Positions 2,209 to 22,665 of a stretch of DNA of 64,000 nt are shown piece by piece. The notes beneath the pieces were generated by a model that worked only from the letters and a program-made list of their open reading frames with translations, had not been told where the DNA came from and ran no database searches. The stretch is from an uncultured Bacteriovorax sp. (GTDB lineage Bacteria; Bdellovibrionota; Bacteriovoracia; Bacteriovoracales; Bacteriovoracaceae): positions 17,505 to 81,504 of the forward strand of contig CAZQJK010000009.1 in NCBI GenBank assembly GCA_964593545.1. Direction: 5' to 3'. Numbering within the stretch: position 1 is the first letter of the stretch; every line of letters begins with the position of its first letter. A program made the position numbers and the translations under genes.

Positions 2209-3576
2209 TTATAGATACTTCATGATGTTGCGAATCAGACTGAGTTTTCCCTCATATGGAGGATATCTCAAAGAGTTTTCAAATAAAAAGCTTCTCTTCA
2301 TTACTGATTTCTTATGGCTAAACAAATCAAACGAGTATTCACCGTGATAAGCACCCATACCACTTTCACCAACTCCACCAAATGGTAGTTTCTCATTCGA
2401 GAGGTGTATTAAAGTATCATTGATAACCATTCCACCGGAAGAAATATCACTAACAAAATCATCCTTACATGAATCAGTATCAAAAAAACCATAACTCGCG
2501 AGTGGCTTATCATGGTTCAAAACATAATTTTTTGCAGCTTCATAGTTATCTACAACCAAAACAGGTAAAATAGGGCCAAATATTTCTTCTTTCATTACAA
2601 GGGATTCACGGTTCCCCTCGACAACTGTTGGTTCGATAAAAAGTGTACTTCTATCTGAATCTCCCCCGATCAAGATTGAACTTTCTTCAATGTATTTACT
2701 AAGACGATCAAAGTGTCTTTCATTAATTATTCTTCCATAATTTGGACTTTGAACAACATCTGTAGTGTAAAAATAGTTTATCCACTTCTTCATTTCAGCA
2801 ATAAAAAGATCACGTGATTTTTCTTCAATAAGAATATAATCTGGGGCTACACAAGTTTGACCAGCGTTAAAGAACTTTCCCCACACAATCCTTTTAGCGG
2901 CAAGATTTAATTTATCTGTAAAAACAAGACATGGGCTCTTTCCACCAAGTTCAAGTGTTAATGGAGTCAAAAACTTAGATGCCTTCTCCATAATGATTCG
3001 GCCAACAACACCATTTCCAGTGTAGAAAATATAGTCAAACTTTAAATTAAGCAGTTCTGTCGTTTCTGGAATCCCACCTTCGATACATTTAACTTCACCA
3101 CCAATCGCAAATGCCTTCTCTATTAAGCGGGAAATTACCTTAGATGTATTTGGAGCAAGCTCAGAAGGCTTAATAATAGCTGTATTTCCAGCTGCTAACG
3201 CTCCAATGAGAGGAGCAAGAACAAGTTGAAATGGATAGTTCCATGGACCTATAATCAGCACAGTCCCATAAGGCTCAGGCACGATATAGCTTTTAACAGG
3301 AAAGAACGTAAGAGAGGACTTGACCTTCTTTGGCTTTCTCCACTTATTTATATTTTTAAGGGCAACATCAATTTCATGAATTACAAAGTCAATTTCTGAT
3401 AAATAAGATTCAAATTCACACTTTCCGAGATCGAGCTTTAAAGCATTGGCAATATCTTCGCTTAATTCTTGTATTGTTTGTTTTAGTTTTAATAGAACTA
3501 TTTTTCTCTTACTAGTGTCTTTCAAATTATTTCTCGCCGAAATAACTTGTTGGTAATACTGAGTAATGTCTTGCAT
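2209..3576 (-). CDS. NAD(P)-dependent aldehyde dehydrogenase (ALDH3-like)
   Basis: PWNYP, LELGGKSP, GQTCVAPDY, EEIFGP, PFGGVGESGMG motifs. Confidence 0.95.
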   Translation of the reverse strand: MQDITQYYQQVISARNNLKDTSKRKIVLLKLKQTIQELSEDIANALKLDLGKCEFESYLSEIDFVIHEIDVALKNINKWRKPKKVKSSLTFFPVKSYIVPEPYGTVLIIGPWNYPFQLVLAPLIGALAAGNTAIIKPSELAPNTSKVISRLIEKAFAIGGEVKCIEGGIPETTELLNLKFDYIFYTGNGVVGRIIMEKASKFLTPLTLELGGKSPCLVFTDKLNLAAKRIVWGKFFNAGQTCVAPDYILIEEKSRDLFIAEMKKWINYFYTTDVVQSPNYGRIINERHFDRLSKYIEESSILIGGDSDRSTLFIEPTVVEGNRESLVMKEEIFGPILPVLVVDNYEAAKNYVLNHDKPLASYGFFDTDSCKDDFVSDISSGGMVINDTLIHLSNEKLPFGGVGESGMGAYHGEYSFDLFSHKKSVMKRSFLFENSLRYPPYEGKLSLIRNIMKYL

Positions 3577-3628
3577 GGGATCCCCTAATTCTTTTCTTAA
3601 AGTATAGGGTAATTACAAATTTGAGGAA

Positions 3629-3654
3629 ATAAAAAAGGGCCACAGAAGTGGCCC
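3629..3654 (-). terminator. Rho-independent terminator of peptide B
   Basis: GGGCCAC-N4-GTGGCCC stem followed by a T-run on the minus strand. Confidence 0.85.
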
Positions 3655-3663
3655 AGTATATTC

Positions 3664-3852
3664 TTACTTTGATCTTCCATTTTCGCTTTTGGCAGGCTCA
3701 GCTGTTCTTACATCTCCAGAAGACGGAAGCTGTTCCTGATATGCACTATCATGAACTGTTTTTTCGCAACTAACATCAGATTTCTCATCTAATGCAAATA
3801 CATTTGATACACTACATACTACTAAGATTGTTAAAATTAAAGCTTTCATCAT
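3664..3852 (-). CDS. Small secreted peptide B (62 aa)
   Basis: Signal peptide ending SNVFA, polar mature part with one Cys, SD AGGGGG, own terminator and sigma54-type promoter. Confidence 0.8.
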   Translation of the reverse strand: MMKALILTILVVCSVSNVFALDEKSDVSCEKTVHDSAYQEQLPSSGDVRTAEPAKSENGRSK

Positions 3853-3892
3853 ATCCCCCTGATATTAATGTTAGGTTGTTTGTTATTTATAT

Positions 3893-3909
3893 TGCACAGA
3901 CCATGCCAA
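3893..3909 (-). promoter_or_regulatory. sigma54 (-24/-12) promoter for peptide B
   Basis: Minus strand TTGGCATGGTCTGTGCA: GG-N10-GC. Confidence 0.65.
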
Positions 3910-4026
3910 ATGATTTCACTTCTAGAGAAAGTGATTTTAGATACTTACCATCAAGAAGAGAGAGTAATTCTGTATATTTTTTAGTCACTGAATATTATTT
4001 TTACAGATTTAGCTAGATTAATTGAC

Positions 4027-4055
4027 AAAAAAAAAAGCCCGATATTATCGGGCTT
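4027..4055 (-). terminator. Rho-independent terminator of peptide C / RHS transcript
   Basis: AAGCCCGAT-N3-ATCGGGCTT followed by a long T-run on the minus strand. Confidence 0.88.
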
Positions 4056-4083
4056 AATTATTTAAAATAAATTTTAACAAAAG

Positions 4084-4281
4084 TTATTTCTTTGTTGAGG
4101 TACTTGTTCCAGCACTTTCTGTGGTCGTATCTGTCGCTGTAGTTGACTTACAAGTACCATCCTTACAACCTGAGATATTTGTACAGCTATCTGCACCACT
4201 TTGCTCGCCTACGCTTACGTCAGAAGCAAGAGTAATATTTAATGAGCTTAATATCGTTAGTAGCAATAGTATTTTCTTCAT
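4084..4281 (-). CDS. Small secreted peptide C (65 aa), positional analogue of Bd0108 (hit)
   Basis: Signal peptide, three Cys, Thr/Ser-rich tail, SD AGGAG; directly downstream of the RHS gene. Confidence 0.8.
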   Translation of the reverse strand: MKKILLLLTILSSLNITLASDVSVGEQSGADSCTNISGCKDGTCKSTTATDTTTESAGTSTSTKK

Positions 4282-4384
4282 TTCGATCTCCTATAGAGGG
4301 TATTTTATCATATAATGGTTAATCACCAACAATCACTTAGTATTTCAGCTTTTCAGGGTCTTAACCTGCCACTGAAAGTTGTCA

Positions 4385-6013
4385 CTACATATTTAAGTTA
4401 ACACCTGCAGGCTTAACAATCGATAATAATGACTGAAATGCTTGCGTTACCTGTAATGCCATTTTATGCCCTGCTTTCGATTCTACCTTTAGAATTTCAC
4501 CGTAGTTATCGTATTTAACATTAATTTTTCCGATGTTCTTCATTGAAATCTCAACAGGCTTTCCTTGAGCATTATAAATAAAGCTCAATTCACGCTTTTT
4601 GTTTGTTGATTTATCAAAGTCGTACATATTTGAAATTCGACCTTTTGAATCATAAGTTAAAAGTACTGACATATTTTTTGAATTCTCAGCTCTTTTCAAA
4701 TTACCTTTCTTATCATATTCAAATTTAGTCCAACCATTATTATTCGACACATTTGTAATCTTGTTAAACTCTGGGTGATACTTAAGTTCAACATAGTCTC
4801 CTCTTGAAGAATTTTTCTTAACAAGAAGCCCTTTGCTATTATATTCAAAATTTGTAACGAAGTTACCTCTTTTGATTTGCTTAGGTAATGAACAACACTC
4901 AGTATAGATAGTCTCAGTAGAAACATTATTTACGACAGTTAAAATTCTGTAAGTATAATGTGATCCATCTGGCTTTCTCTTAATTTCATACTCATAACGG
5001 TTTGTTACATCTTTCCCACCAGGGTTTTTCTTAGTAACTAGTGTCCAGTAATGAAACTCTGGGTTCTTTGGATTAGATTCATATTGATAAGCAACTGACT
5101 CACCATTTTTCTTTGTAACTTCTTCAACGAATTGTGTTTTCTTTGTATACTTAATCTTCATTGCTGAACCATCTTTGTAATTGATAGCAAGCATATTATG
5201 ATTGTGATCATAGTCGTACTTAAAAACATTTCCAGCAATATCTTTTGCTTCGATTAAATCGTCTTCTTTGTAAACGTACTCTGTTTTCTTTCCAGCACCA
5301 GATTCTACAGATTTAATTTTTCCATCTGGGTACCACTGAAAGAATATTTGTTTTGCCATTGAATCTTTAATAGATTTAAGGTTATTTCCTGAATAGTTTA
5401 GGTCTACAACGTATCCATTTTTATCTGTAATTTTAGTAAGCTTACCATCGTCGTTGAACAAATGCTCCTTACCATCATTATATTTTCTAGAGTATCCATC
5501 TTTAGTCTTAACAACTTTCTGAAGACCTCTTTCATTTGAATACAATTCTGAACCAACAGCTAATTTTGCAGAAACATCAAATCTCTTTGCATAGGCTTGT
5601 CTTAATTCTGCATCATTTGTCAGTTTTGTAATCAATGAACTTGCAACAGTTTCAGAAATCGAATTCTTTTTTCTCATTGCATCGATAATTTTCTTTGCAG
5701 CAGCTTCAGCATCAACAGACTTATTCGGTACAAATCTTGTTTTAGCTCCAGATCCATTTTCGTGTATCACAACAGAACCATCCGCCGATACATTCAAATA
5801 TGTCTCATAGTCAGATCCCCATCCAAAACCAAACCAACCTTTATCGGGTGATCTTGAGTTATAGGTTCTCTCAATAATGAGATCATGCCCACCACCTGGT
5901 ACAACAATATCCGTATAAGTGATATGGAAGTTACCATTCTTTAGATTAACGCCTGCAAATGCGCTTGATGCAAAAATACATAATAGTACAAAAAATTTAA
6001 AATTCTTCATCAC
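4385..6013 (-). CDS. Secreted YD-repeat/RHS protein with DUF6531-like N-terminus (Bd0109-like)
   Basis: Signal peptide, GVNLKNGNF...RTYNS...FGFGW, repeated YxYD/FEYD strands; no toxin tip. Confidence 0.9.
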   Translation of the reverse strand: MMKNFKFFVLLCIFASSAFAGVNLKNGNFHITYTDIVVPGGGHDLIIERTYNSRSPDKGWFGFGWGSDYETYLNVSADGSVVIHENGSGAKTRFVPNKSVDAEAAAKKIIDAMRKKNSISETVASSLITKLTNDAELRQAYAKRFDVSAKLAVGSELYSNERGLQKVVKTKDGYSRKYNDGKEHLFNDDGKLTKITDKNGYVVDLNYSGNNLKSIKDSMAKQIFFQWYPDGKIKSVESGAGKKTEYVYKEDDLIEAKDIAGNVFKYDYDHNHNMLAINYKDGSAMKIKYTKKTQFVEEVTKKNGESVAYQYESNPKNPEFHYWTLVTKKNPGGKDVTNRYEYEIKRKPDGSHYTYRILTVVNNVSTETIYTECCSLPKQIKRGNFVTNFEYNSKGLLVKKNSSRGDYVELKYHPEFNKITNVSNNNGWTKFEYDKKGNLKRAENSKNMSVLLTYDSKGRISNMYDFDKSTNKKRELSFIYNAQGKPVEISMKNIGKINVKYDNYGEILKVESKAGHKMALQVTQAFQSLLSIVKPAGVNLNM

Positions 6014-6053
6014 TCTCTATCCTTTCGTATGACTTTTCGAGTTCTCTGTTCAC

Positions 6054-6080
6054 TTATCGGGAAAGTCTAAAAAAACCTTA
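6054..6080 (-). promoter_or_regulatory. sigma28 (FliA) promoter for the RHS gene
   Basis: TAAGGTTT-N11-CCCGATAA vs consensus TAAAGTTT-N11-GCCGATAA; overlaps the tadB stop. Confidence 0.75.
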
Positions 6081-6968
6081 ATCTTTAATTTGAACAATTT
6101 TAAAAATTACCATGGTTCCAACAATATCTAGTACTGTAGCCACGATAAAGAGTAGAATTCCCACAGGATGGCTAAACATTCTCTCTATTGCCTCAGGATC
6201 ACTGGAGCCATACATAATCAGTATTCCGTATGGCATTGCGGCCATAATCATACCCTGAAAACGTCCTTGTGCCGTTGCAGTGTCGATCTTCTGTTTTAAT
6301 CTTACACGTTCTCTAATAACATCAACAATTGTATCAAAAACCTCTGCAAGATTTCCCCCTGTTTCCCTTAATATATTAACGGAACTAACGAACATATCGT
6401 TATCCTGAGTAGGGACACGTTTCGCCAAATTCTCGAAACACTCTTCCAAAGGAACACCAATTCTATTTTGCTGTAACATGACATTAAACTCTTGTGATAA
6501 TGGTGCCGGCATTTCATCAACGACCATCCCAATTGACTGAGGGACACTCAATCCTGCACGTAACCCATTTGCTAAAAGAGTAAGGCCATCAACCATTTGT
6601 AATTCGTATTCCTTAACCCTCTTTGCAACGAAGTAATTAATAATTGGTCTCGGTAATTTAAACCCAATAAACGCAAAGATTATTCCGAGAACAAAGCCTA
6701 ATACCCATTTGCCAAGCAAACCGAAGATAATAATTATTATCGCTGCTGAACCAAATGATAATCCAAGTAGCCCATATGTTATTTTTTCTGGGGCAATCTC
6801 AATGAAGAGAAGATCTAATTTCTCTAGAATATATGTTCTTGTTCCCATCGTTTGTTTTTCGATGAAATCGAAAATACCGACCGAGTACTTATAGCAAAAT
6901 GCAAAAAGAACTACTCCAATAAGAATTACGAGACCGTTAAAACCAATAAGGCTAAGAAAAAATGACAT
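6078..6968 (-). CDS. tadB: TadB inner-membrane platform protein (T2SS F family)
   Basis: LANGLRAGLS, QNRIGVP, ETGGNLAEV motifs; follows the Tad ATPase. Confidence 0.88.
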   Translation of the reverse strand: MSFFLSLIGFNGLVILIGVVLFAFCYKYSVGIFDFIEKQTMGTRTYILEKLDLLFIEIAPEKITYGLLGLSFGSAAIIIIIFGLLGKWVLGFVLGIIFAFIGFKLPRPIINYFVAKRVKEYELQMVDGLTLLANGLRAGLSVPQSIGMVVDEMPAPLSQEFNVMLQQNRIGVPLEECFENLAKRVPTQDNDMFVSSVNILRETGGNLAEVFDTIVDVIRERVRLKQKIDTATAQGRFQGMIMAAMPYGILIMYGSSDPEAIERMFSHPVGILLFIVATVLDIVGTMVIFKIVQIKD

Positions 6969-6975
6969 AACTCAT

Positions 6976-9207
6976 TTACTCCTTTTTCACTGGTTTCCCA
7001 GTTGGTCTTTGAGGACGGTTCCCAGGTGGTTGTCCTGGTCTTGTACCGCTTGGTGCTGGCGGTCTCGCCGCTTGTGGTGGTTGAGAAGCCTGAGATGTAT
7101 TACTAAAAAGCCCTCGAGGAACATTGTATCCCTTCTTTTCTAAAGTCTCGATAAACTTAGGAATAAAACCAGTGGCCTGATATTCTCCAACAATTTTTCC
7201 AGATTTATCAATTCCTTTTTGGACATAGAGAAAGATATCTTGCAATGTAACAACCTCTCCTTGTATCCCACCTATTTCAGTGATGTGTGTAATACGTCTT
7301 GATCCATCATCTAATCTCTGTTGCTGTATAATTAAATGAACGGCTGAAGCAATCATTTCTCTAATCGCTTTTGGAGTAAGCCCTGCTCCCGCATATTGCA
7401 CAAGTGTTTCGATACGCCAGATACACTCTCGAGGATTATTTGAGTGAACCGTTGTTAAGGAGCCATCGTGTCCAGTTCCCATTGCTTGTAACATATCAAG
7501 TGTTTCACCACCACGACACTCACCCACAACAATTCTGTCCGGTCTCATTCTTAGACACTGCTTAACTAATAAGCGAATATCAATTTCACCATCTCCCTCA
7601 AGTGATGGTGGTCTTGTTTCAAGCCTAACCACGTGATCTTGAGGAAAATTAAGCTCAGCTGAATCTTCACAAGTAATGATACGTTCATTTGCCTGAATAA
7701 AACTTCCTAGAACATTAATCAAAGTTGTCTTACCTGAACCGGTACCACCAGAGACAATTATATTTCGGTGACCTTCAACAGCAATTCTTAAAAAATCTGC
7801 CATATTCTGTGTCATGGATCCAAACTTGACGAGGTCTTTATAAGTAAGGCGCTCCTCAGGAAATTTTCTAATTGTGATACAACATCCATCGATAGCAGAT
7901 GGAGGAATAATGGCATGAACTCTTGATCCATCATGGAGTCTAGCATCTACGTATGGTGTTTTTTCATCAATTCGTCTTCCAATCGGCGCAACGATTCTTT
8001 CAATAACATTGAGAACCTGACGATCATTTGTAAATATAACTTCAGACTTTCTAATTTTCCCACTTTTCTCAAAATATATTTTATCAGGTCCAACAACCAT
8101 AATTTCAGATACCGTTTTATCTGATAAAAGATCTTCCAAAGGACCAAGTCCTAATGCCTCATCGATAATTTCTTTAACGATCGCATTCATATCTTCTCGT
8201 GAATTTAATATGCCTTTCGTATCCTCTTTTCCGAGCAAATCAACAACAAGCTTCTTTGTTTTTTCTTTTAGAATAATTTTGGCTTTCGGATCATTTTTAT
8301 CATCATCACCGAGATCCATCTCCTCAACCAAACTCTTATGTATCCTAATTTTTAGATCTCGCCATGCATTTGCTGTTCCCTTAGAAGCTGTCGCTCCCGA
8401 GGCATCAGAACCTGTCTTATTAGTTGTTACACCACTTGGTCTATTTAGTGTTGAAAGTTGCTTTAAGATATTAGATTGAATAATCTTTCTTGCTACTTCA
8501 GTTATTCCTTTCGAGAAGTTACTATTTTTAAGTGCGACGAGAGCAGGCTTTCTTTGATTCAGGGCCATTGCACAAGTTTGATCATCTTTTACGATTGTTC
8601 CAAGTAATGGTCGTCCGAGAGTTTTAGAAACAACATCGGGTGTAACAGGATGACCTTTTTGAGCCTGATTCATTACAAAATGTATCATCTCTTTCGGGAA
8701 CATCATTGTTACTAAATCAGAAATCATTCTCTTCGTTTGATTAAGTACTAACAAGTCTGGCGTTACAACGATTAAAATCATTGTCGAGTACTCTAAAGCT
8801 TTTAGAGTTAAAGGACTTAATTCACTTCCCCCGTCAATCACTGTAATTGGAAAAAGTGATGAAAATGCTTTTAAATATTTTCCAGCTGCATCTGGATCTA
8901 ATCCATCAGTCACTGCTGGGTCATTGGGCAAGCCGATATAATTCACACCTGCTGGATGTGGATTTAAAAAAGGTGCTATAGTGCGAGGATCGATATTTCC
9001 GCTAAAAGCAAAAAGATCTTTCATATTTTTTTTCGACTTAATCCCTGTAATTAAATTTTGATCGCCACTTGCTCTTTGATCAAAATCTAAAAGAAGAGTT
9101 TTTCCTCGAGATTCAGCAACAAGTGAAAAAGCAAGGTTTGCAGCGACTTGAGATTTCCCAACCCCGCCTTTAGCACCGATAACTGTTATTATGTGACCTT
9201 CGGCCAT
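6976..9207 (-). CDS. tadA: TadZ/CpaE(MinD-like)-TadA/CpaF fusion ATPase
   Basis: N-terminal GAKGGVGKS deviant Walker A; C-terminal GGTGSGKTT, LRMRPDRIVVGECRG, TGHDGS. Confidence 0.9.
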   Translation of the reverse strand: MAEGHIITVIGAKGGVGKSQVAANLAFSLVAESRGKTLLLDFDQRASGDQNLITGIKSKKNMKDLFAFSGNIDPRTIAPFLNPHPAGVNYIGLPNDPAVTDGLDPDAAGKYLKAFSSLFPITVIDGGSELSPLTLKALEYSTMILIVVTPDLLVLNQTKRMISDLVTMMFPKEMIHFVMNQAQKGHPVTPDVVSKTLGRPLLGTIVKDDQTCAMALNQRKPALVALKNSNFSKGITEVARKIIQSNILKQLSTLNRPSGVTTNKTGSDASGATASKGTANAWRDLKIRIHKSLVEEMDLGDDDKNDPKAKIILKEKTKKLVVDLLGKEDTKGILNSREDMNAIVKEIIDEALGLGPLEDLLSDKTVSEIMVVGPDKIYFEKSGKIRKSEVIFTNDRQVLNVIERIVAPIGRRIDEKTPYVDARLHDGSRVHAIIPPSAIDGCCITIRKFPEERLTYKDLVKFGSMTQNMADFLRIAVEGHRNIIVSGGTGSGKTTLINVLGSFIQANERIITCEDSAELNFPQDHVVRLETRPPSLEGDGEIDIRLLVKQCLRMRPDRIVVGECRGGETLDMLQAMGTGHDGSLTTVHSNNPRECIWRIETLVQYAGAGLTPKAIREMIASAVHLIIQQQRLDDGSRRITHITEIGGIQGEVVTLQDIFLYVQKGIDKSGKIVGEYQATGFIPKFIETLEKKGYNVPRGLFSNTSQASQPPQAARPPAPSGTRPGQPPGNRPQRPTGKPVKKE

Positions 9208-10694
9208 TAAGGACCCCTCTTCCTAAACTTTCGTTTAATTTCTTCTGAACCAGCTGATGCACTATCAATAATCTCTGGTGTAATAAATACAACAAATTGC
9301 TCCTTACTACGGGACAATGACTTTGATTTTATGAAGGAGAACAACGGAAAACCAGAACCTGCTTCAACAGTATCTGCTCCACCAGGAGGATCTTTATCAT
9401 ATTGAGTAGAAGATTTAGTAGATGAAACTCCACCAACGACAGCAGACTCTCTTGTTTTTACAATTATAATCGTATTGATTGTATTCTCTAAAACATCTGT
9501 TCCGGAACCAAAACTAACTCCGAGAGAAATTTCGATATTTACTTTTTCTTCAGGCATGATTGTACCCTTAAGCTTTAAATCAAAACCTGCATCAATTGAT
9601 GTCGGTTGTTGAAACTCTCCAGTACCTAATGTTGTATTCTTCTTTGTCTTTCTTGTTATCGTCCCATTCTCGTTATCTTTAGCAATAATCATTCCGGACT
9701 GAACAATTCTTGCATACCCTGCAGCTTTTGCAGAATTTAACTTTGGAAATAGTTGTGAAATTGTCCCGGACAATGTTCCATCAGAGCTTGTTGATACGCC
9801 CCCCGAAGATGTTCGCCCAAATGAAATGCTTCCACCTTCTCCACCAAGAGTTGGATTCCATTTAAAACCAAATACTTTGTTATAGTCTTTTGTTAACTCA
9901 ACGAACTGTGCCGTAAACTTAATCATTTTAACAGGTTTTGGCGGTGGTTCAGTTTCATTGACGACAATAAAATTTTTAATAATTTCTTGCTCTAGCTTTT
10001 GGACCGAGTCAGTCCTTCTTGCTAAACTCTCAATTCTGTCTGGCAGATAAGTAATTCCAATTTTTGTCGCGAGTTCTTTTTCTTTTTCAGAACCAACGAT
10101 CCCTTCAAGGATATATGAATTATTAAAAAAGCGGACAGTTACATCTTTAAGATTATTTCTTCTCATCCCTTCTTGCATCTCTTTTGCAATTATTTGATAT
10201 GTCTGAGGAGAGACTTCGAGAAGATTTAAAACATCTTTATAGTCATCGAGAAAGAGAACAACTTTACCAATATCACTTGGGACAACAAGACGTCCTCCAA
10301 CAAAAACCTTGCCGCCTTTTATTCCGACCTCAACGCCCTCAATATCACTAAAGAAGTCTTTTAATTCATTAATAACCTTTGTCTTTTCCGTGGCAGTTAC
10401 TGTTACAAAGTATCGTATTGCGATATCTTTTGTTGCATCATTTCGCACTGATATTGATGAGACACCTGGCTTTAAGCCCTTTATTGTAATCTCTCTTTTT
10501 TGAGGAACAAAAGTCATGTCGACAACTGTATTATCTGCGATCTCTTTAATCGTTGTCGGTACAAAATCAAGTCGAATAACTTTATCTATCCCCATAAATA
10601 TTTCAATTCGCTCTTCCCTTGGGTTAACTTGCGCTATCCCATTCAGGCAAAAAAGAAACAAAAGAAATATTTTTACTGTATTTTTATTAATCAT
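9207..10694 (-). CDS. rcpA: Tad secretin RcpA/CpaC
   Basis: Signal peptide, BON-like segment, AQFVEL and VFITPEII secretin motifs, Tad context. Confidence 0.82.
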   Translation of the reverse strand: MINKNTVKIFLLFLFCLNGIAQVNPREERIEIFMGIDKVIRLDFVPTTIKEIADNTVVDMTFVPQKREITIKGLKPGVSSISVRNDATKDIAIRYFVTVTATEKTKVINELKDFFSDIEGVEVGIKGGKVFVGGRLVVPSDIGKVVLFLDDYKDVLNLLEVSPQTYQIIAKEMQEGMRRNNLKDVTVRFFNNSYILEGIVGSEKEKELATKIGITYLPDRIESLARRTDSVQKLEQEIIKNFIVVNETEPPPKPVKMIKFTAQFVELTKDYNKVFGFKWNPTLGGEGGSISFGRTSSGGVSTSSDGTLSGTISQLFPKLNSAKAAGYARIVQSGMIIAKDNENGTITRKTKKNTTLGTGEFQQPTSIDAGFDLKLKGTIMPEEKVNIEISLGVSFGSGTDVLENTINTIIIVKTRESAVVGGVSSTKSSTQYDKDPPGGADTVEAGSGFPLFSFIKSKSLSRSKEQFVVFITPEIIDSASAGSEEIKRKFRKRGP

Positions 10695-11497
10695 CTTTTC
10701 TCGTATTTATCTTGAAAGAATTTCTTAGCTTCAACCTGGTCTTTCTCACCTAGGATGTCATAAAGCCTTGTTCCTTCAATTCGAACTTTTTCTTTATCAT
10801 TAATATTTCTTAAAATTAGATAAGGAGTACTTTCACCATACTGATAAAGCCAAATTAATTTTTGTACTTCAAAAGGATCAAGCTCTAATGTTACAGAGTT
10901 GTAATTACTGTATGTATTTAACTTCATCTGTTTAATTACTTTGGGAGTTTGTACACCGATAACTGGTAAATTATTTGAGATATTTCTTCCTGTAGACAAT
11001 ACTCTTACGTCTTGTAAAATCGTCATAATCTTTTGTCGATCTCTTCGGCCGGAGTAATCGATAGCAGCAAGAACATCTACGCGATCACCTGGTTTGATGA
11101 GTTTTGATACTGATGTTTGGTCAGAAACAGTTATCGAAACCGCTCTCTTATTTACAGAAACTTCTCTTGATAAACCAGTGCTCTCTCCAGGATAAGTTAT
11201 CCTTGGCTTTGTAATTTGTTCATCTTTTAAAATAGGAACAGTTGCGATTGTGTTTTCTACTTCTTTCATCGTCTTAAAACTTCCTGGCGAGACGAAGCGT
11301 TGAGGTACTGAAATTATTGTTACTTTTGAATCATCAATTAATTCATATTCTCCAATATCTTTTTTCGCAACAATAACAGACGTCATTGAGCCGTATCTTT
11401 TTACTAATTCAGTTTTTTGATCTTCTACGTATGTGTGAACCATAAACATCGCAAAGATTGCTATCACAAGTGCTAAGGTAAATGCTCTAGTATTCAT
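10691..11497 (-). CDS. cpaB: Flp pilus assembly protein CpaB/RcpC
   Basis: SAF domain VIVAKKDI; RAVSI, IKPGDRVDVL motifs. Confidence 0.9.
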   Translation of the reverse strand: MNTRAFTLALVIAIFAMFMVHTYVEDQKTELVKRYGSMTSVIVAKKDIGEYELIDDSKVTIISVPQRFVSPGSFKTMKEVENTIATVPILKDEQITKPRITYPGESTGLSREVSVNKRAVSITVSDQTSVSKLIKPGDRVDVLAAIDYSGRRDRQKIMTILQDVRVLSTGRNISNNLPVIGVQTPKVIKQMKLNTYSNYNSVTLELDPFEVQKLIWLYQYGESTPYLILRNINDKEKVRIEGTRLYDILGEKDQVEAKKFFQDKYEKR

Positions 11498-11587
11498 CTT
11501 CTAACCTTATTTAAGATATTATTATCATTAGCATTTTATCAAATTTTAGTGAACCTTAGCTGACTAGGTAAAAAGGGCCACTCACAA

Positions 11588-12109
11588 CTATTTAAAGGCA
11601 CAAATAGACTTAGATGAATATCCGACAGAGTTTCTTGGGTAATCGACTCGAAAAAAAGTATTATCGGTAGACATGCGACTATAGGTTTCACCACATATTC
11701 CATAGAGAGTGAAAATTTTGATACAAGAAGTTTGATTATCTGAAAATTTTTCCAAACAATCCTCAGAAGCACTACCTGCAAATGGAACATTAGGAAGTCT
11801 ATAGTAAGCTCCAAAAGACACTGAACCACTTCCCTCTTCTTTAAATCTCCATCCGATAATGTTCGCACTCACTAAATTTAAATTAGCGAGTTGTCTTAAG
11901 TCTCTTTCAATTAACCCATTGGAATTTCCATTTAAAAGATAATAAGTATATCCTCGCGTAAATTTTTGTTGATTTATTGAAGCGTTGATCGAGTTACCAA
12001 AATTCATAATCAATCCACCAAGATAGATTAAGATTGGAACAAAGAGGACAAGTTCGAACATCGCCTGTCCATCCTCATTTTTATAAATGTCAAAATATTT
12101 CTTTAGCAT
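11588..12109 (-). CDS. TadE-like pseudopilin
   Basis: GQAMFEL plus hydrophobic helix; start moved to MLKKYF. Confidence 0.75.
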   Translation of the reverse strand: MLKKYFDIYKNEDGQAMFELVLFVPILIYLGGLIMNFGNSINASINQQKFTRGYTYYLLNGNSNGLIERDLRQLANLNLVSANIIGWRFKEEGSGSVSFGAYYRLPNVPFAGSASEDCLEKFSDNQTSCIKIFTLYGICGETYSRMSTDNTFFRVDYPRNSVGYSSKSICAFK

Positions 12110-12110
12110 C

Positions 12111-12626
12111 TTAACATCCATTATCAAAAAGTGTTGTGTGATCACTACAGCTACCTACAGATGCCGAAATTGCATCACAAGTTCTTTTCGCACATTCTGT
12201 TCTTGTTGGCTCTTTCCCTAGAAAAGACTCACTTCTAAATTCCATTGGTATTTTTCCACCAACAGTTTTAGTAAATGATAACCTATCTGTATATGTTGCA
12301 TAGGCTCCAACAAAAGCTTTGATGACATTATCAGCGGGGCTATTGAACCTGATCTCTCCATCAAAATTTGGCATAAATTTTGTTATGTAATAAGATTCAA
12401 AAACTTGCTTCCCTATTCCCTCGGCGTAACTAAAAACCTGCGGAGCATTTGCATTATTATTATCAGTAACAAGATACGCTCTCGATGCCATAAACGTTGC
12501 ATACTGGACGAGGTATCCATTGGTATAATTTAGCGCCTGTTTCATAAAAAAGAAAATAAATGCAAATGCAATTGTTATACAACTTAAGAACTCAACTGTA
12601 GATTGACCTTTTTTATTATTGATCAT
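12111..12626 (-). CDS. TadE-like pseudopilin
   Basis: GQSTVEF plus hydrophobic helix; start moved to MINNKK. Confidence 0.75.
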   Translation of the reverse strand: MINNKKGQSTVEFLSCITIAFAFIFFFMKQALNYTNGYLVQYATFMASRAYLVTDNNNANAPQVFSYAEGIGKQVFESYYITKFMPNFDGEIRFNSPADNVIKAFVGAYATYTDRLSFTKTVGGKIPMEFRSESFLGKEPTRTECAKRTCDAISASVGSCSDHTTLFDNGC

Positions 12627-12945
12627 ATGTGGATGTTGGTCCAAAGAACCGTGAGTTACCATTTTCATTCCTATAACTTTGAAGCTCAATATCGTTATAA
12701 TCATTAGAATAATTATCTATATTTTCATTATGCCCGTATCGATACGAGAACTCAATAATTCTTGCCATCTGTTCATACATACCATTACCATTTCCGAGAA
12801 AGTCTTTCATCACGGATGATTTAATTATAAAGTTTGTTAGGCTTGCAAGAACAATAAGTAATAGTATGTACTCTACTGTCCCCTGTCCTTTTTCATTATC
12901 TAGAATAATATTTTCTCCTTGATAATCCACCCAAACCAAATCCAT
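12616..12945 (-). CDS. Flp/TadE-like minor pilin (start uncertain)
   Basis: GQGTVEYILL motif; the only ATG overlaps the peptidase gene by 46 nt. Confidence 0.65.
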   Translation of the reverse strand: MDLVWVDYQGENIILDNEKGQGTVEYILLLIVLASLTNFIIKSSVMKDFLGNGNGMYEQMARIIEFSYRYGHNENIDNYSNDYNDIELQSYRNENGNSRFFGPTSTYDQ

Positions 12946-13406
12946 GAAATAAATATAACTGGCGCAAATGCAAATTTTTTACCAAATATACTACGAACTA
13001 AATTTATGTCTTTATTTCTAAAAGCAATAACAATCAGATCAGCATTTTTTAATATATTCTTTGTAAACACAGATCCTCCCACAAGTGTTGTGGCGATCGC
13101 TAGAGAAAAGAAGGCCTCCTCATGAAACTGAGAGGGTATTAGAAGATAAAAGGATGCGAGATACTTTGAATCCCCTCCACCCATAATTTTCATGAGAAAG
13201 AGGATAAATCCTGCGGCAAAAAAACCTAGCGGCCAGATGAAAGTTTCGATTTGAAATGAATAATAGTCTGGAAATAGCATTGTAAAGAATAAGTAGAATC
13301 CAATATTAATCATTGGCCACTTATTTGATATCTTCTTTGTTTGAAAGTCATGGTAAGCAACAATGAGGATTTGTACCGCGAGGTAGGCATAGACAACAAA
13401 TGGCAT
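12900..13406 (-). CDS. cpaA: A24 prepilin peptidase TadV/CpaA
   Basis: YHDFQTKKISN, MGGGDSKY, FAFAPVI motifs, multi-TM. Confidence 0.85.
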   Translation of the reverse strand: MPFVVYAYLAVQILIVAYHDFQTKKISNKWPMINIGFYLFFTMLFPDYYSFQIETFIWPLGFFAAGFILFLMKIMGGGDSKYLASFYLLIPSQFHEEAFFSLAIATTLVGGSVFTKNILKNADLIVIAFRNKDINLVRSIFGKKFAFAPVIFISWIWFGWIIKEKILF

Positions 13407-15884: not shown

Positions 15885-18800
15885 TTATTTTGCAAATTTA
15901 AGACTAAACCATTTTTTCATTCGATATGTTAGATAATGAACAATTGGTACCATGAAATATGTAAAAAACATTGAACCTATCATCCCACCTATTACAACAG
16001 CTCCCATCGCTGACTTTAATTTATCGGTATCAAAAAGCTGAGGGAGTGTACCTGCAATAATGGCGATCGAAGTCATAAGAATCGGCTTTAGTTTCTCTTG
16101 AGCTCCAAGCCAAAGGGCTTCTACAATTTCTACACCTTCTTCTAGTTTTTGCTGTGTATACTCAATCCAAAGAATAGCATTATTAACGGCAAGACCAACA
16201 ACCATTACAAACGCCATCATCGAACCGATGTTAATCGTCTGATCAGTAAAGTACATCATCAGAAATGAACCAAGAAAAGATGTTATAATCGATGTCCCGA
16301 TCGAAGCGGGAAAAATGAAAGAGTTTAGAATCGCAACAAGTAACATATAAGTCAAAATAACAGCAAGAACAAATGCCTTACCTAACTCTTTACCTGATTC
16401 GGCCTGATTCTCAGCACTTCCAGTGAAGGCATAAGAAGTCCCCTCGGGAAATTGAACTTCAGTTTTAAAGTTTGCTGTAAGTTCGCCCATCACAACACCT
16501 GGATTTGATTTTGCTAAATAAGCTTGAATCTGAATAATTCGAGACTTATCTCTTCTTTTAAGTGGAGATGTAGCTTCAACCGTTTCAATTTTTCCAAGAC
16601 TTGAGATTGGAATCAAACCATCTTTTCCAAGGACAAGGAACTTATCAAAATCTTCAACGTTTTGCTTGAATTCATCAGCAAGTGTTATATTTATTTTATA
16701 TTCTTCGCCATTCTCTTTATAAACTGCATCATCATTACCATTCACTAGTGATCTGATCACAGATCCAACTTGAGCGTTACTTAGCCCCTGACTAATAACT
16801 TTCTGTGGATCTGGAGTAAACTTGATCTCCATTTTTGGAATTTTATATGAACTCTGAATTGAACTAAAGTAACCAGTTTTCGCCATGACAGCTTTCATTT
16901 TCTCAGCAGTTTTACTCATATCAGAAAAATTTGTTCCTCTTACATCGATAGTCACATCCCCGTCATTACTGGCAGTCCCACTCCCTCCAGAAAGAATAAC
17001 TTCAGCCTCTGGAATTCTAGAAACGGCAGGAAGCAACTCATCCATCAATTGCTTATAACCTCTATCTCTTTCTGCGAAAGGTGTTAAATTAACTGTTAGA
17101 CGTGCTTTCTCTTCACCATCATAACCAATATCAGCAAGTGTACTTTCAACTTCAGGATATTCTTTAACAATACGATCGACAGTTTCAACAACACTTGCTG
17201 TTTTCTTAATTGGAGTTCCATCTGGAAGCTGGATACTGATGTCGATTCTATCTCTGTCTGACTTAGGAACAAACTCTCCACCAAGACGTTTTGCCGGATA
17301 CATAATCGTTAAGAAAAACATTGTTACAATCAGTAAAGATACAAATGGTCTTTTCATCATATGATCAAAGAACCAACGATACTGAATAAGCAACCATCCA
17401 ATTATTTTATCGGTAAATTTAGCAATAACTGGAAATGGTCCCTTCAATGTTCTTGGATCTTTTAATACAAGAGAACAAAGCATTGGAGTCAAAGTAACAG
17501 ACGCGATAATTGAAAATATTGTTGCGTACACAACTGTCATACCAAACTGAAGCATGAACTTTCCAACAATCCCCCCCATGAACGCAAGAGGAGTAAACAC
17601 AACAAGATTTGTTCCAGAAGAGGCCATAACCGCGAGAAGAACTTCTTTCGTTCCATCAATTGATGCAGTTACTGAGTCTTTACCTTCAACTAAATGCTTG
17701 TTTACGTTTTCAATAATAATCAAAGCATTGGCAATTAGAGTACCAAGACAGGTACCAAAAGCCAGAAGAGTCATCATATTGATTGAAAAGTTTGATATAT
17801 CCATCAAAAATAACGTTGAAATTACAGAAGTCGGAATAACGACGGCAGCAATGAGGGCCCCTCTCCAGTCACCAAGGAAAACAATAAGAATAACAACAGT
17901 TAAAACAATACCAAGAAGAATACTATTCACTGTCCCCTTCGTATTACTTAAAGTAATTTCAGTAGCATCAACCGCTAGCTTAAGCTCCATCCCTTGGGGA
18001 AGTTGTGTTTTGATTTTTTCAAGTTGGGTACGAAGTGTCGCAACAATCTTAACAGCATCACCATCAGATAGTTTTTTTACCCCCATCCCAACAATTTCTT
18101 CACCGTTGAAACTAGCCATTGAAGTAACATCTTTTGCTCCATCTGTTACCTTTGCTATATCTTTAAGCTTAAGCTTCTTCCCTTCACGAGATACAATTTC
18201 AAGCTCTCCAATTGATTCAACGTTTGGAAATTCACCAACAAAGCGAATGCTTACTTTAGAGTCACCACGATCGATAGACCCTCCAGGAACGTTGATATTT
18301 TTCCTTGTGATTGTATCGATTACATCTTGGATAGAAAGATAGTTTTGAATAAGTAAGTTATTATCAAGATCAACATTTATTTGTCTCTCTTCTCCACCAA
18401 AAATATCAACAGATGCAACACCATTAATTGCAGTAATCTTAGTCTTTAGCTTTTTATCCGCATACTCATAAAGTTCTTTGGCATCATGCGACTTACTACT
18501 GAGGGCAAGTGTTACGATTGGCTTAACAAGCGGATCGAACTTAGCAATAATAGGTCGATCAGCCCCGTCTGGGAAATCATTTAAGATTGCCTCAACCTTA
18601 TCCTTAACTTCAATTGATTTAATATTAACATCAGCTTCAATTAGAAACTCAATTACAACAACACCGTAACTATCACGTGCTTCAGCAGTAACTTTTTTAA
18701 TTTGAGATATCTCAGAAACAGCATCTTCAATCTTTTTTAGAATCTGTGTTTCAATCTCTTCTGGTGAAGCTCCTCCGTAAACAGTTTGAATAGTTACGAT

Positions 18801-18923
18801 GGGAAATTCAATCTTTGGCGTATCTTCAATAATAAGATTTCCGATCGAAACAAGACCCATAACCATAAATATTGCAATAAATATAATCGTCGTCGCAGGA
18901 CGTTTTACAAATAGTTCTATCAT
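15885..18923 (-). CDS. AcrB/AcrD/AcrF-family RND permease
   Basis: 1012 aa, FVKRP start, PKIEFP, GASPEEIE, PILMT; two large periplasmic loops. Confidence 0.95.
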   Translation of the reverse strand: MIELFVKRPATTIIFIAIFMVMGLVSIGNLIIEDTPKIEFPIVTIQTVYGGASPEEIETQILKKIEDAVSEISQIKKVTAEARDSYGVVVIEFLIEADVNIKSIEVKDKVEAILNDFPDGADRPIIAKFDPLVKPIVTLALSSKSHDAKELYEYADKKLKTKITAINGVASVDIFGGEERQINVDLDNNLLIQNYLSIQDVIDTITRKNINVPGGSIDRGDSKVSIRFVGEFPNVESIGELEIVSREGKKLKLKDIAKVTDGAKDVTSMASFNGEEIVGMGVKKLSDGDAVKIVATLRTQLEKIKTQLPQGMELKLAVDATEITLSNTKGTVNSILLGIVLTVVILIVFLGDWRGALIAAVVIPTSVISTLFLMDISNFSINMMTLLAFGTCLGTLIANALIIIENVNKHLVEGKDSVTASIDGTKEVLLAVMASSGTNLVVFTPLAFMGGIVGKFMLQFGMTVVYATIFSIIASVTLTPMLCSLVLKDPRTLKGPFPVIAKFTDKIIGWLLIQYRWFFDHMMKRPFVSLLIVTMFFLTIMYPAKRLGGEFVPKSDRDRIDISIQLPDGTPIKKTASVVETVDRIVKEYPEVESTLADIGYDGEEKARLTVNLTPFAERDRGYKQLMDELLPAVSRIPEAEVILSGGSGTASNDGDVTIDVRGTNFSDMSKTAEKMKAVMAKTGYFSSIQSSYKIPKMEIKFTPDPQKVISQGLSNAQVGSVIRSLVNGNDDAVYKENGEEYKINITLADEFKQNVEDFDKFLVLGKDGLIPISSLGKIETVEATSPLKRRDKSRIIQIQAYLAKSNPGVVMGELTANFKTEVQFPEGTSYAFTGSAENQAESGKELGKAFVLAVILTYMLLVAILNSFIFPASIGTSIITSFLGSFLMMYFTDQTINIGSMMAFVMVVGLAVNNAILWIEYTQQKLEEGVEIVEALWLGAQEKLKPILMTSIAIIAGTLPQLFDTDKLKSAMGAVVIGGMIGSMFFTYFMVPIVHYLTYRMKKWFSLKFAK

Positions 18924-20882: not shown

Positions 20883-21353
20883 TTAAAGTTTTTCTCTTAT
20901 ACAACTTTCAATATGCTTAAGTTGCTTCAACAGCATCTCTTTTTCTTCCAAAGAGAAAGGAGAGAGTGTTTTGCGAATTAATTCTGAATAAACAGGGAGT
21001 GAATTTTCCATTAACTCAGAACCTTTCTCAGTAAGCGTAACATTTTTCACTCTGGCATCTTTTGCATCAACAACTGACTTAATTAGCCCCTGAGCGATCA
21101 TGCGATTCATAATTCCTGTCACATTGGCCTTTGATACTGAATTGTTAATTGCGATTTCTGTAACAGTTGTTTTTTTACTTTCTGTGAAATGAATAAAAAC
21201 CATAATATCAAATTGCGGCTTTGATATGCCGTACTGAGCGATTCCCTTCGTTATCAAGTCATCAAATAATTTTGTAGCCCTGATATTGGCCCCTAGAATA
21301 TCGAGATCCAGATCATGTAGTTTGAGTTCTCTTCTTTGCATATATCCTTCCAT
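20883..21353 (-). CDS. MarR-family regulator
   Basis: GISKPQFDIM, VSKANVTGIMNRM, DARVKNVTLTEKG. Confidence 0.92.
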   Translation of the reverse strand: MEGYMQRRELKLHDLDLDILGANIRATKLFDDLITKGIAQYGISKPQFDIMVFIHFTESKKTTVTEIAINNSVSKANVTGIMNRMIAQGLIKSVVDAKDARVKNVTLTEKGSELMENSLPVYSELIRKTLSPFSLEEKEMLLKQLKHIESCIREKL

Positions 21354-21555: not shown

Positions 21556-22392
21556 TTATCCTTTAATTAGCGATAACGCTACATTTGGTGCCTGATTCGC
21601 TTGAGATAATACAGATGCACCCGCTTGCATTAGGATGTTGTTCTTAGTTAACTTTGCAGTCTCATCTGCAACGTCGACATCCCTAATTCGTGAATTTGCT
21701 GCCGATAGGTTCTCATCACTAACGCCAAGATTGTTGACGGTAGATTGTAGCCTATTTTGAAGAGCACCCATACCTGCCCTAACACCGTTGACTTGCACAA
21801 GTGCATCATCCAGTTTTTTAAGAGCGGCCTGAGAGCCTTCTTTAGTGGCAACAGAGTCAGCCGAGAGACCAAGAGATGCAAGCGTAGCATCTGATCCAGT
21901 TCCGTCATAGACAAGTCTATCCAGAATTGGATCATTCTTGATCCCGACTTGGAACTCAAGTCTTCCGCCTGTTCCATCGAGAAGCTTGATTCCGTTAAAT
22001 TCAGCAGATCGAGAGATTCGATCAATTTCTTCTTTAAGATTTTGAAACTCGATGTCTGTAAACTTTCTCTCTTGTGGTCCAAGAGTGTCGTTTGCAGTTT
22101 GTACTGCGAGTTCCCTAAGCCTAATGATGATATTTGATACTTCACTTAATCCACCTTCAGCAGTCTGGATGAGAGAGATAGCATCATTTGCGTTTCTCTT
22201 AGCTTGTCTCATCCCTCTAATCTGAGCTTTCAAATTTTCACTGATCGCCAGACCGGCAGCGTCGTCCCCTGCCCTTGTTATTCTTTCCCCAGAAGCTAAT
22301 TTCCTAAGGTTATCTCCAACATTTTTATTTGTTTGTGCTAATGTTCTTTGCGCCGACAAAGACATAACATTTGTATTTACTCTTAAGCCCAT
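21556..22392 (-). CDS. fliC: Flagellin 1 (short, D0/D1 only)
   Basis: MGLRVNTN, LASGERITRAGDDAAGLAISE, RIRDVDVA; start moved to 22392 with SD AAGGAG. Confidence 0.96.
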   Translation of the reverse strand: MGLRVNTNVMSLSAQRTLAQTNKNVGDNLRKLASGERITRAGDDAAGLAISENLKAQIRGMRQAKRNANDAISLIQTAEGGLSEVSNIIIRLRELAVQTANDTLGPQERKFTDIEFQNLKEEIDRISRSAEFNGIKLLDGTGGRLEFQVGIKNDPILDRLVYDGTGSDATLASLGLSADSVATKEGSQAALKKLDDALVQVNGVRAGMGALQNRLQSTVNNLGVSDENLSAANSRIRDVDVADETAKLTKNNILMQAGASVLSQANQAPNVALSLIKG

Positions 22393-22665
22393 TTTTAATC
22401 TCCTTCGTACATATCCAAACCTCCTGTTTAAGTCCTTGTGCATCCATGCGCAAGTTTGCCTTTTTTGTTAATAATAATTTGTGCTAACTAACAATGGACA
22501 AATCAATCTCTTTTTTTCCTCTTAATCGATTGATAAGCAATTAAAGATTGCAGCCAATAATTGCGTTTTAATATTTATCCGGTTGTCATCAACATACACT
22601 GCTCCATTATAAAAATGCTTTTACTAAAAAGTTCTTTAAGCTTACAAACAAACGTCTTAAGGGGA

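Follow-up and report, generated by a model that had tools for sequence, protein, structure and literature searches.

What does an RND permease do when the acidic residues that should drive it are missing from its membrane core? Efflux in Gram-negative bacteria is mainly the work of RND pumps, whose energy coupling is taught as the protonation of carboxylates in transmembrane helix 4 (TM4); a review places at least one acidic residue centrally in the TM domains of all RND transporters (PMC8277102, section 5.1.5). The question is raised by a four-gene operon in a 64,000-nt stretch of DNA from an uncultured Bacteriovorax sp. (contig CAZQJK010000009.1), called 'the window' below, from whose first letter all coordinates are counted unless another locus is named. 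The operon encodes an RND permease (the window permease), a periplasmic adaptor, an outer-membrane channel and a regulator. A first-pass annotation, made from the sequence alone, had proposed that this permease lacks the canonical proton-relay residues. Our analysis bears this out, supports the accompanying interpretation in part and, on the evidence of sequence, places the protein in a large, conserved clade of RND permeases whose relay is neutral; in this operon the permease is paired with a minimal adaptor. The acid-less clade is almost certainly a functional and conserved one, and it stands as a natural, strongly selected counter-example to the statement in the review. Full-text literature searches returned no description of RND pumps without relay carboxylates, and the class is apparently undescribed.

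An AcrB-type permease with a neutral relay

The window permease is an RND permease by every structural test, yet it is without the mechanistic hallmark of the AcrB paradigm. The Pfam model ACR_tran (PF00873) aligns residues 1-998 with model positions 1-1019 of 1021, at 706.3 bits (cut-off 28) and an E-value of 7.7e-212. The NCBIfam RND subfamily models NF033617, NF000282 and TIGR00915 score 627.8, 504.8 and 431.6 bits, below their cut-offs of 1250, 1250 and 940. An AlphaFold2 (AF2) model (m80791c35f895), with a predicted local distance difference test score (pLDDT) of 81 and a predicted TM-score (pTM) of 0.71, contains 12 TM helices, and Foldseek aligns it with AcrD, AcrB and CmeB at query TM-scores (TMq) of 0.92-0.94. 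With Escherichia coli AcrB and MdtB (HAE-1), the protein thus shares its fold, its length, its 12 TM helices, its two large periplasmic loops and an adaptor and channel encoded alongside; against individual AcrB chains the TM-score is 0.86-0.92, at 22% identity in the Foldseek alignments. Its nearest named relatives, from Halobacteriovorax, are 72-75% identical. A database protein listed as 100% identical to it (P0001) differs at two residues, G424V and E427D.

Residues were mapped using a MAFFT alignment with E. coli AcrB, MdtB, MdtC and CusA, which agrees with a phmmer alignment to MdtB (9lyq) where 'GTLIANAL' lies over 'GFVVDDAI' and 'GLAVNNAIL' over 'GIVKKNAIM'. In place of AcrB D407 and D408, the window permease has A398 and N399, at exactly the codons that the first-pass annotation had singled out (Table 1). 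The motif GLAVNNAIL, which it had read at the Lys940 position of TM10, puts N914 there, and the change it had seen from RLRP to KLKP in TM11 corresponds to R971 becoming K944 and R973 becoming K946. AcrB D924 is also replaced by Asn, and new polar residues stand at N439 in TM5 and T858 in TM8. AcrB G403, E414, N415, S481 (S471 here), N941 and T978 are kept. Outside the relay, most of the AcrB distal-pocket aromatics F136, Y327, F610, F617 and F628 have given way to other residues, and the switch loop is shortened. An alignment artifact was considered and rejected, since phmmer against the PDB, the four-reference MAFFT alignment and three independent alignments give an identical mapping.

The titratable TM4 Asp pair and the TM10 Lys that mark the AcrB paradigm of HAE-1 are therefore absent. 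With D407, D408 and K940 gone, the AcrB-style relay cannot run as described for AcrB, and to that extent the earlier doubt about ordinary H+ antiport is justified.

This arrangement is not peculiar to one protein. Among the 120 closest homologs, which reach down to 48% identity and come from Halobacteriovoraceae, Bacteriovoracaceae, Elusimicrobiota, Endomicrobiales and Oligoflexus, 119-120 have A/N in TM4 and N in TM10. N399 is found in all 120, in 45 of 45 acid-less cluster representatives and in 78 of 78 related loci (both sets are described below), and N914 in 119 of the 120 and again in 45 of 45 representatives. The substitution at K944 is a conservative one: the position is Lys in 103 and Arg in 16 of the 120 close homologs, and Arg in 84 of 84 DD-type pumps (those with both TM4 aspartates) as against 22 Arg and 21 Lys in the acid-less class. 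The D924 position is variable already in DD-type pumps (N/S/G/D), and the T951 position varies (T/A/S/M) in the wider acid-less class.

The first-pass annotation had pointed out that an Asp or Glu elsewhere in the core might compensate. Alignment-based mapping, class-wise column statistics and a survey of all charged residues in the 12 modelled helices located no compensating acid in the membrane core, the residues found being all at helix ends, and the idea was rejected. In the AF2 model, E405 in TM4 and the pseudo-symmetric E921 in TM10 (AcrB E947) are the only TM4 and TM10 carboxylates at least seven residues from a helix end. Both occur universally among RND pumps, and E405 and K/R944 are retained in every class. 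Carboxylates equally deep in other helices, namely E427 (TM5), E846 (TM8) and E943 (TM11), lie beyond the membrane by AcrB numbering. E943, beside K944, was tried as a class acid and rejected, being acidic in just 56 of the 120 near relatives and non-acidic in distant ones, and the change of AcrB E893 to N867 proved not to be class-specific. The only class-enriched acid is at the E846 position, acidic in 62% of acid-less against 15% of DD/K representatives and in 63 of 78 acid-less loci. A column-by-column comparison of these two classes yielded seven discriminating positions: N399, N914, V913, L346, P704 (in the porter domain), N439 and T858. With two Asp and one Lys lost and K/R944 kept, the net charge of the core is shifted by +1 relative to AcrB.

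Breadth and phylogeny of the acid-less clade

We searched 1.84 billion cluster representatives at full length and without a word index, which gives an unbiased sample, and took the 150 best proteins (28-53% identity). Together with the references, 84 of these have two Asp in TM4 and Lys in TM10 (DD/K), 45 have a non-acidic residue followed by Asn in TM4 and Asn in TM10 (xN/N) and nine have Asp-Asn in TM4 and Asn in TM10 (DN/N); DD with N and xN with K do not occur among the best 150 and the references. A neighbor-joining tree computed without the relay columns unites all 40 full-length xN/N representatives in one clade of 44 tips. Of the four other tips in it, three have one Asp each, P0157 at TM4 407, P0127 at TM4 408 and P0142 at TM10 940, and the fourth, P0190, has S-G in TM4. 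The rare single-Asp members indicate that the relay pocket can still accommodate a charge, and all four proteins are natural variants that could be used as a mutational series. As far as these alignments tell, the acid-less sequences are a large, essentially monophyletic clade of AcrB-type RND permeases.

Two known departures from the DD/K pattern help to place the clade. E. coli CusA has D405, A406 and E939 at the relay positions, and the DN/N class keeps its one TM4 Asp, so the DD/K triad is not obligatory; unlike the acid-less class, both of them retain at least one carboxylate. The clade obeys clear covariation rules, DD pairing with K and xN with N, and has natural intermediates (D-N with N, a single Asp elsewhere in the pocket). 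It offers a direct means of finding the minimal requirements for coupling an ion gradient to the RND cycle, and of asking whether ions other than H+ can drive RND pumps. It also bears on annotation, as the label 'multidrug efflux RND permease' has no functional basis for these proteins in predatory bacteria, candidate phyla and gut Alphaproteobacteria.

One genome per species was scanned with three patterns, which returned at least 600 matching stretches and at least 594 confirmed relatives in many phyla; the best 80 loci were analyzed. They come from Bacteriovoracaceae, Bdellovibrionales, Omnitrophota (including Velamenicoccus archaeovorus), Elusimicrobia, the gut 'Candidatus Enterousia' and other Alphaproteobacteria; from Rickettsiales, Deferribacterales, Planctomycetales, Calditrichaceae, Ignavibacteria, Gemmatimonadota and Bacteroidota; and from Cloacimonadota, Aminicenantes, Krumholzibacteriia and Poribacteria. 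In these loci, 78 target genes are of readable length, and every one of them is acid-less. Since two of the three patterns include TM10 'VNN' and TM5 'TN', only the TM4 position is free of ascertainment in this set; the representative search is free of that bias.

A further search, seeded with an acid-less member of the Bacteroidota type, returned proteins of uncultured Ignavibacteria, Melioribacteraceae and Bacteroidota under generic names only, with no characterized pump among them. No solved structure of the class is apparent either: when a TN-type TM4-TM6 segment was searched against the PDB, the five best alignments read 'VVDDAIVV', and the remaining matches listed are AcrB/Mex/Ade/Cme/Mdt-type pumps by name.

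A published RND phylogeny (PMC10872679) makes no mention of protons, motifs or aspartates. It leaves six of the seven RND genes of Bdellovibrio bacteriovorus and the sole RND gene of Elusimicrobium minutum unclassified, and divides the non-HME RND genes of Halobacteriovorax marinus into five of clade H and two unclassified (PMC10872679). The sole non-HME RND gene of Melioribacter roseus and four RND genes of Ignavibacterium album are assigned to clade G (PMC10872679). These genome-level counts suggest that the near clade is among the 'unclassified' genes of that phylogeny and that distant acid-less members are in its clade G.

Some of the related loci show further variation. In a metagenome-assembled genome of Bacteriovoracaceae (locus L046, its positions 2228-13042), a canonical DD/K RND operon with a 368-aa adaptor and an acid-less A-N/N operon whose adaptor has 366 aa stand back to back, which brings both relay types into one genome neighborhood. 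In Ca. Enterousia and other gut Alphaproteobacteria (L019-L042 and L075; 38-41% identity), TM11 has 'K-K-N-M' in place of 'R-x-R-P', with loss of the second basic residue and of the Pro, and TM10 reads 'VNNN'.

Selection and transcription

Between two close relatives (loci L084 and L085), the ratio of nonsynonymous to synonymous substitution rates (dN/dS) of the RND gene is 0.02 at an unsaturated dS of 0.33; against the window it is about 0.06, with dS saturated. The permease is the best-conserved product of the operon, at 84% amino acid identity versus 62% for the channel, 55% for the adaptor and 52% for the MarR protein. At the D408 position, all 78 species have Asn, encoded by AAT in 41 and AAC in 37. 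As the two Asn codons alternate while Asp is a single A-to-G transition away, the Asn is selected for, beyond mere toleration. The possibility of relaxed selection, which the first-pass annotation had kept in view, is refuted by these values, and decay into a pseudogene is rejected by dN/dS and conservation together.

In an aquifer metatranscriptome, identical contigs cover all four operon genes and none covers the adjacent RmlD-like gene. This argues for transcription rather than carry-over of DNA, contig data being weak evidence in themselves. The window sequence also occurs in aquifer, seawater and estuary metagenomes.

A tripartite operon with a minimal adaptor

The four genes lie on the minus strand in the order MarR, TolC-like channel, adaptor, permease, with a gap of 1 nt between the first two, an overlap of 4 nt between channel and adaptor and a gap of 12 nt before the RND gene. 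This tight packing and the end-to-end ACR_tran match agree with the earlier description of a full-length gene in an intact operon. With OEP-domain and MFP-like genes directly upstream of the RND gene, all three components of a tripartite pump are encoded together. Matches of the channel to the NCBIfam TolC and NodT models are below the curated cut-offs. In most related loci whose contig reaches that far, a channel gene lies 5' of the adaptor and RND genes, and a MarR gene precedes the channel gene in many related loci and in L084 and L085. A promoter and terminator scan was uninformative, giving fewer matches than shuffled sequence. From its sequence and its setting, the window permease is the predicted inner-membrane part of a tripartite exporter, strongly constrained and with a putatively remodelled coupling site.

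The adaptor is the other unusual component. Only its residues 98-209 match RND_mfp (model positions 202-317), that is, the C-terminal half. Its AF2 model (pLDDT 85) has an N-terminal membrane helix at residues 2-30 and a short helix followed by strands only, with no alpha-hairpin. Foldseek finds Borrelia BesA as the best match (4KKU/4KKT/4KKS; E-value 1.4e-11, TMq 0.65); the link to BesA comes from this fold search, as a sequence search against the PDB gave marginal MacA matches only. A homolog search returned just six matches, and adaptors of 220-243 aa, at identities of at least 45%, occur in 14 related loci among the best 80. In the Enterousia group no adaptor is detectable by sequence, and about 600 nt lie between the channel gene and the RND gene. 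The adaptors of distant acid-less members (33-35% identity) are ordinary ones of about 345-372 aa, which makes the mini-adaptor and the acid-less relay separable traits. The adaptor evolves much faster than the permease (55-57% versus 83-84% identity to the same relatives), and its N-terminal helix has invariant Y14, K21, K29 and K31. At 215 aa, it illustrates how far reduction of the periplasmic adaptor can go in a three-component pump.

The closest parallel for such an adaptor is BesABC of Borrelia burgdorferi, which also has three components in one operon (co-transcribed in BesABC) and an adaptor without an alpha-hairpin. Disruption of BesABC lowers minimum inhibitory concentrations (PMC2279261, PMC3807786), so hairpin-less pumps can work. 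BesA measures about 317 aa in the published alignment, and the shorter window adaptor is anchored by its helix and lacks a lipobox (lipid-anchor) cysteine. The permeases differ as well. BesB has 'GMVVDCSIVVIDN' in TM4, with Asp at the D407 position ('VVDCS'), and 'GVVVNTGIV' in TM10 (Text S1 of PMC2279261); like the window permease it has Asn at the K940 position, but it keeps the Asp of the D407 position where the window permease ('LIANA') has none. BesB was therefore rejected as an acid-less precedent, and the sole characterized hairpin-less pump is of the single-Asp type. The window operon matches BesABC in its hairpin-less adaptor and departs from it in the absence of that single TM4 Asp.

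How the pump may be powered

In AcrB, K940, lying between D407 and D408, joins the two TM repeats, as do the D407-T978 contact and, toward the cytoplasm, that of R971 with E414/N415, which is broken in the O state; D408 is also bonded to S481, TM5 and TM10 flank a cytoplasmic water channel, and TM8 and TM5 pack together during the T-to-O step (Eicher et al. 2014, PMC4359379). Transferred to the window permease by residue mapping, the first two links are gone and E405-K944 is the predicted sole ionic link left. The new polar residues N439 and T858 would sit on TM5 and TM8, helices that line the water path and transmit movement.

The reading that we favor, with a probability of about 0.4, is that H+ still drives the pump through a relocated site, made up of the E405-K944 pair and an Asn-lined polar path. 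The pump would go on cycling through AcrB-like conformations under an ion gradient, with its switch moved. N399 and N914, with N915, N898, S471 and T951, would form a hydrogen-bonded polar core in place of the D408-K940 salt bridge; this core is probably hydrated and could hold a chain of water. E405 opposite K944 would be the only titratable pair left between the two TM repeats, and its protonation and deprotonation at E405 would engage and disengage them. E846 may help from the periplasmic end of TM8, where it could serve as an entry or antenna site.

Several points weigh against coupling through this relocated site. E405 is a putative proton carrier, and its counterpart in AcrB, E414, is located close to where TM4 meets the cytoplasm, with no known periplasmic access. 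Arg takes the place of K944 in about half of the wider class, which suits a fixed counter-charge and not a titratable partner, and the E846 position, acidic in only about 62-81% of the class, is not an obligatory site. Asn cannot carry protons, so that a purely Asn-lined path requires ordered water. That the class exports drugs or metabolites is suggested by operon content alone. The AF2 monomer is closest to AcrB protomers in the O state (4DX7 chain C and 9FDP; TMq 0.92, root-mean-square deviation (rmsd) about 3.0), as compared with the L state (TMq 0.86-0.87, rmsd about 4.4) and the T state (TMq 0.89, rmsd about 3.9). Likeness to the O state is what a 'permanently protonated' mimic would predict, but it may reflect monomer prediction alone and is not used as evidence here.

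A broader departure from the paradigm is conceivable, although we doubt it: the clade may be a branch without a carboxylate proton relay, powered through an all-amide/hydroxyl site by Na+, by an anion or by a coupling chemistry new to the RND superfamily. If this were true, the N399-N914 pair would be the hallmark of a non-carboxylate coupling mode.

Coupling to Na+, or to another metal cation, seems unlikely to us on balance. The switch would be the binding and release of the ion at a neutral cluster of Asn, Thr and Ser oxygens, for which N399, N439, N898, N914, N915, T858, T951 and S471 are the proposed site. The specific retention of an invariant Asn over Asp would suit such a site, as would the habitats, given the metagenomes in which the window sequence occurs and its marine Halobacteriovorax relatives. 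Clades G and H, a proposed HAE-4 family, are enriched in marine and other saline settings and contain VexEF of Vibrio cholerae, which is reported to need Na+, and Na+ use has been proposed as a trait of the family (PMC10872679). By genome counts, the acid-less Ignavibacteria pumps are probably in clade G; compared through such genome-level clade counts only, the window permease would resemble VexEF and the proposed HAE-4 in lying outside HAE-1 proper and in its marine enrichment. On the other hand, the class is also present in soil, gut and groundwater lineages, and the nearby Lys/Arg (K944) disfavors a cation. Mid-membrane Na+ sites, moreover, almost always include a carboxylate.

We find it improbable that the protein has no ion coupling of its own and works as a passive or partner-driven conduit, whether by downhill export of a periplasmic or outer-leaflet product, in a heterotrimer with a canonical RND protein or energized via another protein. 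The classical site does lack any titratable residue, Halobacteriovorax marinus carries nine RND genes in all (PMC10872679 Table S1) and the L046 locus has a DD/K-type operon adjoining its acid-less one. The first-pass annotation had listed partnership in a heteromer among its options. A heteromer of the MdtBC or MuxBC type is encoded by two tandem paralogous RND genes; the window has a single RND gene and none of the 80 related loci has mdtBC-like tandem RND genes sharing an adaptor, which makes such a partnership unlikely. In the two loci with a second RND gene (L046 and L066), the second RND gene has its own adaptor. The gaps of 12 nt and 70 nt that flank the RND gene leave no room for a small conserved ORF. 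An idle core also fits poorly with buried Asn residues and an E405/K944 pair that stay invariant under strong purifying selection, and two other options of that annotation, a sensor and a passive conduit, are left unsupported by the conserved channel-adaptor-permease operon and the invariant polar core.

Asp-to-Thr and Asp-to-Asn changes turn proton-pumping rhodopsins into chloride pumps, and by analogy the relay pocket might have become an anion site for Cl- or OH-, built from the cationic TM11 residue and amide and hydroxyl donors. We regard this as a long shot. The shift of +1 in net charge would favor it, Asn, Ser, Thr and Lys/Arg are typical anion ligands and the source habitats include saline water; yet the proposal has analogy as its sole basis and is unprecedented in the RND superfamily, K944 has E405 close by, which may already neutralize it, and the class is widespread in low-chloride habitats.

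That the gene is decaying or non-functional, or that its product is a signalling receptor no longer capable of transport, is very improbable: the only support is the absence of AcrB-essential residues, and against it stand a dN/dS of 0.02-0.06, an ORF that is full length in hundreds of species, a confident fold model, transcription and a constant linkage to the outer-membrane channel and adaptor.

Features of the locus

The coordinates of the operon and of the residues discussed above are collected in Table 1. The G+C content of the window is about 35%.

Table 1. Operon genes and key residues of the window permease, with positions in the window and supporting evidence
Feature	Position	Strand	Evidence or conservation
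MarR-family regulator, first operon gene	20883..21353	-	Pfam MarR_2, MarR, SarA/Rot
TolC-like outer-membrane factor, 433 aa	19580..20881	-	Pfam OEP, two stretches, E 5.8e-41
Minimal periplasmic adaptor, 215 aa	18936..19583	-	Partial RND_mfp match; AF2 model
RND permease, 1012 aa, acid-less relay class	15885..18923	-	Pfam ACR_tran, 706 bits
A398-N399 in TM4 (AcrB D407-D408)	codons GCC AAT 17732-17727	-	phmmer, MAFFT
E405 in cytoplasmic third of TM4 (AcrB E414)	17709..17711	-	E in 119/120; conserved in every class
N439 in TM5 (AcrB L449)	17607..17609	-	98% N in acid-less class vs I/D/L in DD class
E846 at periplasmic N-terminus of TM8 (AcrB Q872)	16386..16388	-	E in 120/120 near clade
T858 in TM8 (AcrB V884)	16350..16352	-	91% T in acid-less class vs I/V/M in DD class
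N898 at start of TM10 (AcrB D924)	16230..16232	-	N in 120/120 near clade
N914-N915 (AAT AAT) in TM10 (AcrB K940-N941)	16179..16184	-	phmmer, MAFFT
K944-L945-K946 in TM11 (AcrB R971-L972-R973)	16086..16094	-	MAFFT
T951 in TM11 (AcrB T978, kept)	16071..16073	-	T in 116/120 near clade

Within the RND gene, a 262-aa ORF runs antisense at 17554-18342 on the plus strand; its presence is probably a matter of chance in a genome of low G+C content. Downstream of the operon lies a Tad/Flp pilus locus (6976-13406) with genes for a prepilin peptidase (12900-13406), RcpC/CpaB (10691-11497), a secretin (9207-10694) and a 743-aa ATPase in which a MinD/ParA/CbiA-like P-loop domain is fused ahead of the T2SSE (TadA-type) domain. 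Further along, at 4385-6013, a 542-aa protein with RHS repeats and DUF6531 is possibly of the polymorphic-toxin type. On the other side of the operon, within a flagellin gene at 21556-22443, a metatranscriptome contig joins 21999 to 22156 and skips 156 nt in frame, which would represent either a variant in the population with a shorter central region or a deletion allele.

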